Below are positions 56,006-58,653 of a DNA stretch of 64,000 nt, piece by piece. Position numbers and translations under genes: made by a program. How positions within the stretch are numbered: the stretch's first letter is position 1; the number at the start of each line of letters is the position of its first letter. The DNA lies in contig JAJREF010000001.1 in the NCBI GenBank assembly GCA_047459655.1, positions 256,001 to 320,000 of the forward strand. Reading direction: 5' to 3'. The notes under the pieces were generated by a model. That model was not told where the DNA came from and ran no database searches. It worked only from the letters and a program-made list of their open reading frames with translations. The stretch comes from Rhabdochlamydiaceae bacterium (lineage in GTDB: Bacteria; Chlamydiota; Chlamydiia; Chlamydiales; Rhabdochlamydiaceae).

Positions 56006-57418
56006 ATGAGGCGTGCAATCTTTCTTCTTCCGATTTTGCTATGCTCCTGCTTTGCGAATAGAGCAGCAATCAACCCCTATTCCTACGCCCCACAAAGGCA
56101 AAATAAATTTTGGAAACCAGGCGGTAAAGATAAAGAAAAGATCGAAGGGTTAGAAGAAGACACCGGCCCTCTTTCTTTAGCAGAGATTGTTGATATTTCG
56201 CTGAGAAATAATCCAGAAACAAGGGTTACCTGGGCAGATGCAAGGGTTGCAGCTGCACAGTATGGACAATCGCAGAGTTCTGATTTTCCCACATTAACAA
56301 GCACCTATGCATGGTCAAGATTTAGAAACGTCTTAACAGCAGCAGATGGTTACGGCGGAACGGTTGCTGAACCCTATTTCTTTAGCCAGTGGGGCCCGCA
56401 GCTACAGCTTTCTTACACCCTCCTTGATTTTGGGCAGGGAAGGGCTGCTGCGCAAACAGCCAAAGAGCTTTTATATAGCGCAGGCTACATCCATAACCGT
56501 AAGATACAGACGGTGATTCAGCAAGTCACTTCTGATTATTACAGCTACATCTACCAGCAAGAGCTTTTAAAAGCTAATGAGCAAGATGTCATTACAGCTG
56601 AAACCACGTATGAAGCAGCCAAGGTCAGTTTTGATGCGGGCATTAAAAGTCTTTCCGATCTTCTCCAGGCCAAAACAAAATTACTCCAAGCTCAGATCCA
56701 GCTTGTGACTCAAAATCAGACTCTTGTCGTTTCTTTAGCGAACTTGCTAACCGACATGGGGCTAAAAGCAAATCAAAAAATTCCCATTCGCAACATGCCT
56801 GAAGTTCCTCCCATTGAAGAAATGCTGGCAAGTGCGCAAGATCTTCTCAATGTCGCTTTAGAAAAACGCGCAGACCTGTTAGCTGCGCAAGCAAAGGTTC
56901 AATCGGAAGAGTACAATATCGTCGCTGTACGGAGGCAATTTTTCCCAACGGTGACCTATAACCTGAACTTTGGAGAGACCTCTTATTCAAAAATAGGAAG
57001 TGACCGGTATGACTTTGTAACCACATTTTCTTTGAACTTTCCTATTTTTTCAGGATTTTCAACTCTGAATTCTCTTAAAATAGCAGAAGCTAATAAGGAA
57101 AAAGCAGAGGCAGAGCTTGCTCAAACACAACTTCAAGTTGTGAAAGATATCACGACATCCCACAGCGCTGTAGAGCAAGCTTTCGAAGCCCTCAAATTTT
57201 CTTCTGAGCTTTTAAAAGTAGCAGAAGAGCAGTACCAAGTAGCAATTGCCCTCTACAAAGCAGGCACAGGTAATATCTTAGAAGTCGTCTCTGCACAGGG
57301 TTCTCTTGCCAATGCAAGAGCGCAGTGTGCAAATGCTAATAATGAGTGGTTCACATCTCTCATCAATTTAAGTTATGCAGCTGGCTCTTTACAGCCTCCG
57401 GAGGCCAAAACTCTATGA
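56006..57418 (+). CDS. TolC-family outer-membrane efflux lipoprotein
   Basis: Lipobox ILLCSC, LSLAEIVDISLRNNPE, LLDFG, YKAGTGNILEV; first gene of an OMF-MFP-RND operon. Confidence 0.92.
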   Translation: MRRAIFLLPILLCSCFANRAAINPYSYAPQRQNKFWKPGGKDKEKIEGLEEDTGPLSLAEIVDISLRNNPETRVTWADARVAAAQYGQSQSSDFPTLTSTYAWSRFRNVLTAADGYGGTVAEPYFFSQWGPQLQLSYTLLDFGQGRAAAQTAKELLYSAGYIHNRKIQTVIQQVTSDYYSYIYQQELLKANEQDVITAETTYEAAKVSFDAGIKSLSDLLQAKTKLLQAQIQLVTQNQTLVVSLANLLTDMGLKANQKIPIRNMPEVPPIEEMLASAQDLLNVALEKRADLLAAQAKVQSEEYNIVAVRRQFFPTVTYNLNFGETSYSKIGSDRYDFVTTFSLNFPIFSGFSTLNSLKIAEANKEKAEAELAQTQLQVVKDITTSHSAVEQAFEALKFSSELLKVAEEQYQVAIALYKAGTGNILEVVSAQGSLANARAQCANANNEWFTSLINLSYAAGSLQPPEAKTL

Positions 57419-58653
57419 AGAGACCTCTACACAACTCTGGTAAACCGCTAAAATCGCGCTTTTTCCGCAGATTTTATTTTTCATATCTCGCCTACTCCAT
57501 TGAGTATGTCTTCGATATAAAATCAAAAATTTGCAAAAAAATCTTCGATTTTTTCGATTTGCCAGAGTTGTGCAGAGGTCTCATGAAATGGGCATATTGG
57601 ACTATTCCCCTACTTTTGCTTGGCTGCTCTAAAAAAGAGGTTCCACCTCCTACGCCCCCCTATGTTACAACCGGACAGGCCTCCTCCCAAAATGTCCCTT
57701 TTTATTTTGAATATGTAGGACACGTTGAAGCCTACCAATCGGTTGAAATCAAAGCTCAAGTCACCGGACTCATCAATGGACAATACTTCACCGAAGGACA
57801 AGAGGTGAAAGCAGGAGATCTCCTTGTCACTATCGATGACCGCCCTTTTAGAGCAGCCCTCTCTAAGGCAGAGGCTGAACTTGCACAAAATATTGCAACT
57901 TTAAGGCAAGCAAGAGAAACCGTTGAAAGGTACTCTCTCCTAGTAAAAGAAAGCTATATCTCTCAACTTGACTACGATCAGTTTGTGACAAACGTCTACA
58001 CAGGTGAAGCAGCTATTAAGCAAAATTATGCAGATATTGAAACAGCTACGATCAACCTCAATTACTGCACAATCACCGCTCCCATCACTGGTGTTACAAG
58101 CAAGCTGCTCATCAACGTAGGAAATTACATCCCCGTCGGCGGAGAGAATCCCCTGATGAGCATTAACCAAGTCAAACCCATCAAAGTTGAGTTCAATGCT
58201 CCTGAAAAAGATCTTCCCTATATTACGCTTGCACAAAGCAAAGAGCCCCTCAAAGTGATTGCTTACTTGCAAGGAGCCCCCATTGAAGGAAAATTGCACC
58301 TGATCGACAACCAAGTCAATACGGGGACGGGCATGATCCTTTTACAAGCGGTTTTTCCCAATGAAGATATGCGTCTATGGCCTGGAGAATTTGTTGATGT
58401 ACGCGTCATTGTTGAGATCAAAAAAGATGCTACAGTTATTCCAGCACAAGCTGTTTTACTTGGACAAGATGGACCTTATGTCTATGTATTAACAGAAAAT
58501 AGGACGGTTGAATTGCGCCCTGTTTTACCTGGTCTCAAGGAAGGTAGCATGGTAGTCATTGATAAAGGAGTTTTTCCTGGAGAAACTGTGATTATCGAAG
58601 GGCAGATTAATCTTTCTCCTGGCGCCTCTGTTAGCATTAAAAACAAAATATGA
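57415..58653 (+). CDS. RND efflux periplasmic adaptor (membrane fusion protein); start at 57415 or 57583
   Basis: Lipobox LLLLGC after M57583, VEIKAQVTG, FTEGQEVKAGDLL, ITAPITG, LWPGEFV. Confidence 0.93.
   Translation: MKRPLHNSGKPLKSRFFRRFYFSYLAYSIEYVFDIKSKICKKIFDFFDLPELCRGLMKWAYWTIPLLLLGCSKKEVPPPTPPYVTTGQASSQNVPFYFEYVGHVEAYQSVEIKAQVTGLINGQYFTEGQEVKAGDLLVTIDDRPFRAALSKAEAELAQNIATLRQARETVERYSLLVKESYISQLDYDQFVTNVYTGEAAIKQNYADIETATINLNYCTITAPITGVTSKLLINVGNYIPVGGENPLMSINQVKPIKVEFNAPEKDLPYITLAQSKEPLKVIAYLQGAPIEGKLHLIDNQVNTGTGMILLQAVFPNEDMRLWPGEFVDVRVIVEIKKDATVIPAQAVLLGQDGPYVYVLTENRTVELRPVLPGLKEGSMVVIDKGVFPGETVIIEGQINLSPGASVSIKNKI
57420..57582. repeat. Type B palindromic element (163 bp) inserted in frame at the tolC/MFP junction
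   Basis: 25-bp TIRs GAGACCTCTACACAACTCTGGTAAA / TTTGCCAGAGTTGTGCAGAGGTCTC (23/25); ATGAA direct repeat at 57415-57419 and 57583-57587. Confidence 0.92.

Follow-up and report, generated by a model that had tools for sequence, protein, structure and literature searches.

How can a mobile hairpin occupy the overlapping stop and start codons of two coupled genes and leave both the coupling and the reading frame intact? This question is raised by a locus in a 64,000-nucleotide stretch of DNA (hereafter the window) from a Rhabdochlamydiaceae bacterium (GCA_047459655.1, contig JAJREF010000001.1, positions 256,001 to 320,000), where a 163-bp palindromic element lies at the junction between a tolC gene and the gene for the periplasmic adaptor of an RND efflux pump. 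We identified this element as a non-autonomous MITE (miniature inverted-repeat transposable element) of the IS5-family type, and the adaptor is probably translated from its original start codon through 56 additional codons, with the extension removed along with the lipoprotein leader. The genome holding the window (G000; assembly 82% complete) was compared with its congeners G001 and G002 and with further relatives. In what follows, C1, C2, C3 and C5 are contigs of G000, L-numbers are loci in relatives, in G000 or on a plasmid, and X1–X4 are sequencing runs. The locus contains the following features.

56006–57418, forward strand: gene for a TolC-family outer-membrane channel of 470 aa (TIGR01844, E 4.7e-46, below the curated cut-off); its stop TGA overlaps the first adaptor ATG (ATG1)
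57400–57404, forward strand: ancestral Shine-Dalgarno sequence GGAGG inside tolC, 10 nt before ATG1 and also present in G002; duplex of −9.5 kcal/mol when paired with the 3′ end of the 16S rRNA of G000 itself
57415–57419, forward strand: left copy of the 5-bp target duplication ATGAA, containing ATG1 and the tolC stop; single copy in G002
57420–57582, no strand assigned: 163-bp non-autonomous MITE of the IS5-family type, reading RPL...RGL in frame; G000 contains 14 full-length copies, this one included
57420–57444, forward strand: left terminal inverted repeat
57558–57582, reverse strand: right terminal inverted repeat, carrying the Shine-Dalgarno-like AGAGG (57574–57578) 4 nt before the second ATG (ATG2); duplex of −7.0 kcal/mol
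57583–57587, forward strand: right copy of the target duplication ATGAA, containing ATG2 and the start of the ancestral signal MKWAY...LLLGC
57415–58653, forward strand: gene for the RND periplasmic adaptor (membrane fusion protein, MFP; TIGR01730, 264 bits, cut-off 94.9), with a product of 412 aa if translated from ATG1 and of 356 aa if from ATG2; the lipobox cysteine is encoded at 57625–57627
58650–61708, forward strand: gene for the RND permease, which a one-base frameshift near 60019 breaks in this assembly but which is unbroken in G001, G002 and the X4 population

Anatomy of the element and its insertion site

The ATGAA repeats flank the element as a preliminary description of the locus had proposed, and the tolC stop (57416–57418) and ATG1 (57415) both fall within the left copy. 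Element and duplication together add 168 bp, corresponding to 56 stop-free codons (MKRPL...RGL) in frame with the ancestral MKWAY, and the ATGA coupling and the frame are both kept. The position of AGAGG within the terminal stem was likewise confirmed. The same description had called the element a whole-length palindrome with 25-bp terminal repeats. Its length and its ends stand, with 23 of 25 positions complementary (alternatively, 37 nt at 86%), but only 90 of the 163 positions match the reverse complement without gaps (73% with gaps), and the element is a long imperfect hairpin. Folding of a 211-nt region gave −75.5 kcal/mol (z = −9.3), a stability reached by none of 200 shuffled sequences, and the stable hairpin starts 2 nt past the tolC stop. 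The encoded peptide contains 12 K/R and 5 D/E residues with no strong hydrophobic stretch and resembles the n-region of a signal peptide. We rejected a structured non-coding RNA or riboswitch: an Rfam covariance search of the element returned 10 matches, all far below gathering scores and mostly generic miRNA hairpins, and no covariation was detected among the copies (term −0.04). A scan of the element returned no terminators, and one promoter-like site where 0.7 would be expected.

Both congeners show a bare ATGA overlap, and ATGAA occurs once in G002, in agreement with the empty site anticipated for related Chlamydiae. The closest named relative locus was L246 (TolC identity 91%). A survey of the junction across the family examined 78 loci from 80 adaptor-matching genomes (G203 and G431 left out) and resolved 74 junctions, of which 40 have the −4 overlap and 69 have an overlap of any kind. 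The orthologues lack the 56-aa extension, which is accordingly no orthologue-wide domain; a conserved N-terminal domain was also rejected, as 31 candidates gave 4 hits and the extension lay outside all of these.

The best-matching sequencing run for the locus is a lake-water metagenome. A contig of X1, possibly the source sample, runs through the entire element. In X4, a run of another study, two contigs overlapping by 8 nt bridge the left and right junctions and contain the element without a gap, in a population that differs at 217 of 2,933 nt (7.4% overall) and in which the RND frame is continuous. No indel within the element is listed in the contigs of either run, which upholds an insert length that is a multiple of three. 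X2 and X3 yielded scattered short contigs, none of those listed bridging a junction; a close-relative scan of metagenomes with the adaptor retrieved one distant locus, and no RNA run was among those listed for the region. The insertion is thus real, tolerated and in frame, and has been kept in a diverged lake population.

The proteins of the operon around it show signs of continued purifying selection. The ratio of non-synonymous to synonymous rates (dN/dS) against G002 is ~0.04–0.06 in all five segments tested (adaptor dN 0.084, dS 1.5), private amino-acid changes in the adaptor show no excess (18 in G000 vs 17 in G002), and 24 of the 28 adaptor differences listed between G000 and X4 are synonymous. 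The element itself differs from its X4 counterpart at 4 listed positions and up to 2 more near the contig end, out of 163, with no listed change creating a stop. The proportion is below that at third codon positions of the neighbouring adaptor, where 24 of 153 differ (binomial p 1e-6), and marginally below the overall 7.4% (p 0.04). Several near-identical copies of the element are present in X4 (unitigs at depth 36–44), so that collapsed assembly or gene conversion could explain its low divergence, besides selection.

A MITE family with an IS5-type parent

The genome contains the further copies that the preliminary description had led us to expect: 14 full-length copies, 78–96% identical to the junction copy, plus fragments. 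Perfect 5-bp duplications, of six different sequences, flank six of the 14. Twelve copies lie outside long reading frames and two are fused in frame, one to the adaptor and the other to an OppA-family lipoprotein. The RPL...RGL frame is open in seven copies, five of which are non-coding. The open 56-codon frame is therefore a property of the family consensus that gives no sign of design, and its survival at the junction needs no special explanation; the RPL...RGL peptide is a direct outcome of the IS5-type terminal repeat.

The ends of the element point to its origin. A broken transposase on C3 is an IS5-family remnant whose right end shares the terminal motif of the MITE (13/13 nt) and whose fragments match plasmid records annotated "IS5 family transposase". 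Relative G428 carries an intact 1,200-bp IS5-family element (L071) with a 332-aa frame, a 5-bp duplication and ends identical to the MITE right end over 16/16 nt, and a plasmid "IS5 family transposase" element (L068) has similar ends and a 5-bp duplication. IS5-family elements on plasmids (H1, H7) and among Neisseria matches (H3, H4, which we take to be IS1106) have in common with the MITE the terminal repeat (G/A)AGACCTCTGCA and the 5-bp duplication, whereas the MITE has no transposase and its internal similarity to the insertion sequences (IS) stops after the 16 terminal bases. Based on the matching ends and the duplication, we assigned the element to the IS5-family MITEs. It is short, has inverted ends and lacks a transposase, occurs in dispersed copies with duplications, and its site is empty in relatives. 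Only the broken element was found when an intact cognate transposase was sought in the 82% complete assembly. An intact IS5 element on C3, with GGAACC ends and 4-bp flanks, was rejected as the parent; it matches another family (family B) with 66 copies. The remnant on C3 is itself part of a nest of insertion sequences (C3:3600–8150; L056, L057, L060), in which it has MITE-like ends, is interrupted by two other IS5-family elements and lies beside a MITE copy.

Searches of the insert returned no Pfam family. Outside G000, no full-length copy was found in 40 relatives, none of 400 genomes matched a strict pattern, and the genome collection held no exact 21-mer match; a peptide-profile search for the family gave weak hits only, in 4 of 399 chlamydial genomes (1 genome unscored).

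A second coding copy in an OppA lipoprotein

In an OppA-family gene (C5:93486–95234; L048, L072), codon 6 is followed by another copy of this MITE, 151 bp long and in frame; no other OppA match in the assembly reaches E ≤ 1e-60. The duplication of this copy has decayed and a 12-bp deletion keeps the frame. Orthologues have an empty site, and the G000 protein shows no excess of change (16 vs 19 private changes). Apart from the start codon itself, no ATG, GTG or TTG occurs before the lipobox cysteine, 73 residues on. An OppA signal without a later start codon favours read-through, with the extension removed together with the signal peptide. Signal peptidase II cleaves lipoproteins at the lipobox, and its gene is present in G000; the 73-residue OppA leader would accordingly be translated and cleaved. 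Read-through is forced in the G000 OppA alone, since the other fusions, described below, have internal ATG or TTG codons.

Recurrent insertions at the adaptor start

In G013, G273 (two in tandem) and G428, that is, in 3 of 76 relatives, the first five codons of the adaptor harbour in-frame hairpins of other, unrelated families, each present in multiple copies. No such fusion was found at 55 TolC or 75 RND starts (Fisher p 0.049 pooled; 0.25 and 0.26 singly). If 3–10 in-frame fusions are assumed among ~1,500 genes per genome, three hits in one gene have p 0.0005–0.014, and a search of ~376 kb of aligned coding sequence found no hairpin insertions. None of the three independent adaptor fusions has a duplicated start codon. 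A fused hairpin was also present in one of 13 OppA orthologues. Besides those in G273, three such insertions, each of an unrelated multi-copy MITE and in frame, were located in the opening five codons of a signal sequence.

L018:1120–1292: adaptor of G013
L202:705–868: adaptor of G428
L078:3027–3199: OppA of G012

In G273 (L173:1540–1930), two tandem identical 165-bp copies of another MITE occupy the adaptor signal, giving a 129-residue leader, and no stops were present in any aligned segment of the operon. The in-frame share of MITE copies, a minority in most families, was 5/16 in G012, 5/17 in G013, 2/26 examined in G428 and 3/5 in G273. Two related arrangements were observed nearby: in G143 (L163:2980–3144), a MITE-like hairpin at the adaptor/RND junction replaces the last adaptor codons and places GGAG before the RND start, and in G206 (L185, contig end) another hairpin ends ~40 nt upstream of the adaptor start. 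A 265-nt inverted repeat inside an RND gene (L010) was set aside, as the alignment shows no insertion there, and seven TolC insertions of ≥18 aa proved to be low-complexity linkers rather than hairpins.

On the simpler reading of the recurrence, the tolC/adaptor junction offers no intergenic space, any insertion at it necessarily ends up in the leader, and those out of frame are lost. A more ambitious reading would make the overlap in this chlamydial family a recurrent landing site, with in-frame fixation of four or more unrelated MITE families in a single lipoprotein leader, and the present copy a selected, transposon-made tuner of pump stoichiometry, with a duplicated start and a hairpin-masked Shine-Dalgarno sequence unmasked by upstream ribosomes; we consider this rather improbable.

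Translation of the interrupted adaptor gene

We propose that a non-autonomous IS5-family MITE inserted at the ATGA stop/start overlap and duplicated 5 bp. Ribosomes finishing tolC would restart at the original ATG1 and read the 56 extra codons; these would lengthen the lipoprotein leader to 70 residues, and signal peptidase II is predicted to cut this leader off after export. The hairpin may lower re-initiation to some extent. Retention would then be a filter effect: the element together with its duplication has a length divisible by three, the family consensus has one open frame, and copies landing in that frame in a disposable leader would persist. ATGA overlaps were strictly coupled in 13 of 14 cases tested, according to the portion of PMC6728339 available to us, and the termination-reinitiation described there involves the same overlap and intragenic Shine-Dalgarno sequence as found here. 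Under a thermodynamic model of start opening, in which the ribosome footprint sizes are our assumption, ATG1 costs 19.8 kcal/mol to open in naked RNA and 1.8 under a terminating ribosome. The corresponding values for ATG2 are 30.9 and 19.3 kcal/mol, falling to 12.7 with a ribosome at codon 6, the lowest modelled, and the empty G002 site costs 8.1. In this model, either start could be opened by ribosomes.

Several observations weigh against translation from ATG1 followed by removal of the extension. The Shine-Dalgarno spacing of 10 nt at ATG1 is shared by only 3 of 71 GAGG-bearing starts in the genome, the 4-nt spacing at ATG2 belongs to the modal 4–5 nt (29 of 71), and the protein database entry is the 356-aa form chosen by the gene caller. 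Structure just past a stop codon suppresses re-initiation in E. coli, as stated in the part of bioRxiv 10.1101/2020.02.10.941153 at hand; hairpins near stops are reported to be depleted at overlaps, whereas the one found here belongs to a mobile element and lies within the downstream gene's reading frame. We found no paper showing the processing of a 70-residue leader by the Sec/signal peptidase II route. Internal ATG or TTG codons are present in the other MFP fusions and in the OppA fusion of G012, and both this assembly and X1 show the frameshift near 60019 in the RND gene, which is absent from X4, G001 and G002. Finally, with no fused element at 55 TolC starts and only 1 of 11 fusions found independently of the adaptor and OppA queries lying in a lipoprotein signal (judged by eye), a general preference for lipoprotein leaders is not shown.

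Part of this evidence could be accommodated if the same MITE were present and the adaptor were made mainly from ATG2, with a Shine-Dalgarno sequence supplied by the right end of the element and exposed by ribosomes melting the terminal stem, so that coupling is kept and the leader has a normal length. The spacing of GAGG, the fall in modelled opening cost as ribosomes approach, the choice of the gene caller and the comparable element end that puts GGAG just ahead of the RND start in G143 (L163) all fit such a start. We nevertheless regard it as unlikely: even at its lowest modelled cost ATG2 remains more closed than ATG1 under a terminating ribosome or the empty G002 site, OppA, where a second start is lacking, tolerates a copy of this family, and the start codon is duplicated in none of the three independent adaptor fusions. 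The preliminary description had left the choice between a 56-aa gain and a ribosome-unwound switch. Of these, the N-terminal extension is the better supported, and we found no evidence of a regulated switch. A hairpin maintained by selection to attenuate or switch the output of adaptor and RND relative to that of TolC, lowering or gating it by a block on re-initiation or by cleavage with RNase III, would explain why in each of four genomes a different element occupies the first adaptor codons and why the X4 element has diverged less than the adaptor third codon positions; G000 has a gene for RNase III, although the assembly splits it. It is distinctly improbable, given that 73 of 76 relatives have no fused element, that the element contains no sensing feature, terminator or above-chance promoter and its copies do not covary, and that the excess over TolC and RND starts is marginal. 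Of the three codons changed in X4, two encode a different amino acid, and a pair of adjacent changes disrupts base pairing in the stem; the low divergence in X4 could, as noted, reflect assembly or gene conversion.

It could also be argued that the adaptor is disabled by the insertion, which endures because the organism can do without the pump and is losing it. The RND frameshift in the window and X1 would agree with this, as would the larger number of private amino-acid changes in G000 than in G002 for TolC (25 vs 15) and the N-terminal half of RND (16 vs 9). Such decay appears very improbable. The RND frame is continuous in X4, which carries the element; the adaptor differences listed against X4 are predominantly synonymous; and all four adaptor insertions keep the frame. 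Single-base frameshifts also occur in two genes that a cell normally needs, gatA (window 51300–52900) and rnc (C2:202156–202808). The break near 60019 lies at a G run and, with gatA and rnc also split, is likely an indel error of the assembly. Translation from ATG1, with the extension cut off alongside the leader, is the account that we favour.

Comparison with Rickettsia palindromic elements and other MITE fusions

Rickettsia palindromic elements (RPEs) were reportedly described by Ogata et al. in 2000 and 2002. In-frame palindromic insertions reading RPL...RGL had been named as their hallmark in the preliminary description, and the locus does hold a mobile in-frame palindromic element that works like an RPE. 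Membership of the RPE families was rejected on the available peptide models: a six-frame search of G000 with the RPE1 hidden Markov model TIGR01045 reached at best 12.5 bits (cut-off 30), away from the element, and no NCBIfam family was matched at E ≤ 10 by the junction insert or by five other inserts. RPE1 is the only RPE model that we confirmed in the NCBIfam library, which presumably also contains models for RPE2–5.

The likeness lies in the mode of action, as far as RPEs are discussed in the portions of PMC2229807, PMC10969869 and PMC1458961 available to us. Like the present MITE, RPEs are multi-copy hairpins of ~100–170 bp in an intracellular bacterium, mostly intergenic and in a minority of cases in frame in conserved genes. 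In R. bellii, 53 of 526 RPEs are fused in frame to genes (PMC1458961, in part), compared with 2 of 14 copies here, and the effect of an RPE in gmk was apparently neutral, as summarised in the same portion of PMC2229807. The MITE differs from RPEs in the order of its host, in its clear 5-bp duplication (the entry for RPEs in Table 1 of PMC2229807, as seen in that portion, is "?"), in an identifiable IS5-family parent and in being unmatched by the peptide models. In addition, both of its coding copies lie in predicted cleavable lipoprotein leaders, whereas RPEs lie in mature domains.

Open frames of MITEs fused to genes, as here, are also known for Yersinia YPAL/RU-2, ERIC and the Coxiella QMITE (PMC2229807, PMC5896051, both in part), and the 168-bp/56-aa frame of YPAL contributes to the predicted signal peptide of YPO1552 according to the same sources. 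Those fusions give a putative new gene or a C-terminal extension, in contrast to the longer n-region of a conserved lipoprotein and the duplicated coupled start found here. The in-frame fusion of a MITE is thus already known as a class of event; new are the link to a parent of IS5 type, the coupled start that is duplicated and has gained a second, masked Shine-Dalgarno sequence, and the presence of four independent families at one gene start. We found no paper on chlamydial MITEs or on this leader pattern in a search that left subscription journals mostly uncovered, and the MITE lists in the supplement of PMC11602168 could hold the family; "chlamyd" is absent from the main text of PMC10969869, PMC11602168 and PMC3184786.

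These results would extend RPE-like invasion of proteins to environmental chlamydiae, and they connect one such family with a parent of IS5 type whose duplication is defined. If read-through is correct, cleavable lipoprotein leaders would be a safe harbour for mini-transposons, and the Sec/signal peptidase II route would tolerate leaders of 70 to ~130 residues whose peptide sequence comes from selfish DNA. Gene callers would then misplace the starts of such genes.

Other mobile elements in the genome

G000 contains at least a dozen MITE-like families; 16 seeds retrieved 149 full-length copies, with 66 in one family. Most families are 162–166 bp long despite unrelated ends, a convergence in length. 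Further MITE-like elements in the window are located at:

33997–34152
37794–37955
43044–43205
36956–37031

On C5 (319081–319909), a copy of the element is interrupted by ~700 bp with what we take to be group II intron-like ends (GTGCG past a short hairpin and a domain V/VI-like 3′ end). A 1,195-bp transposase-bearing element on C1 (452612–453806) is flanked by perfect 10-bp direct repeats.

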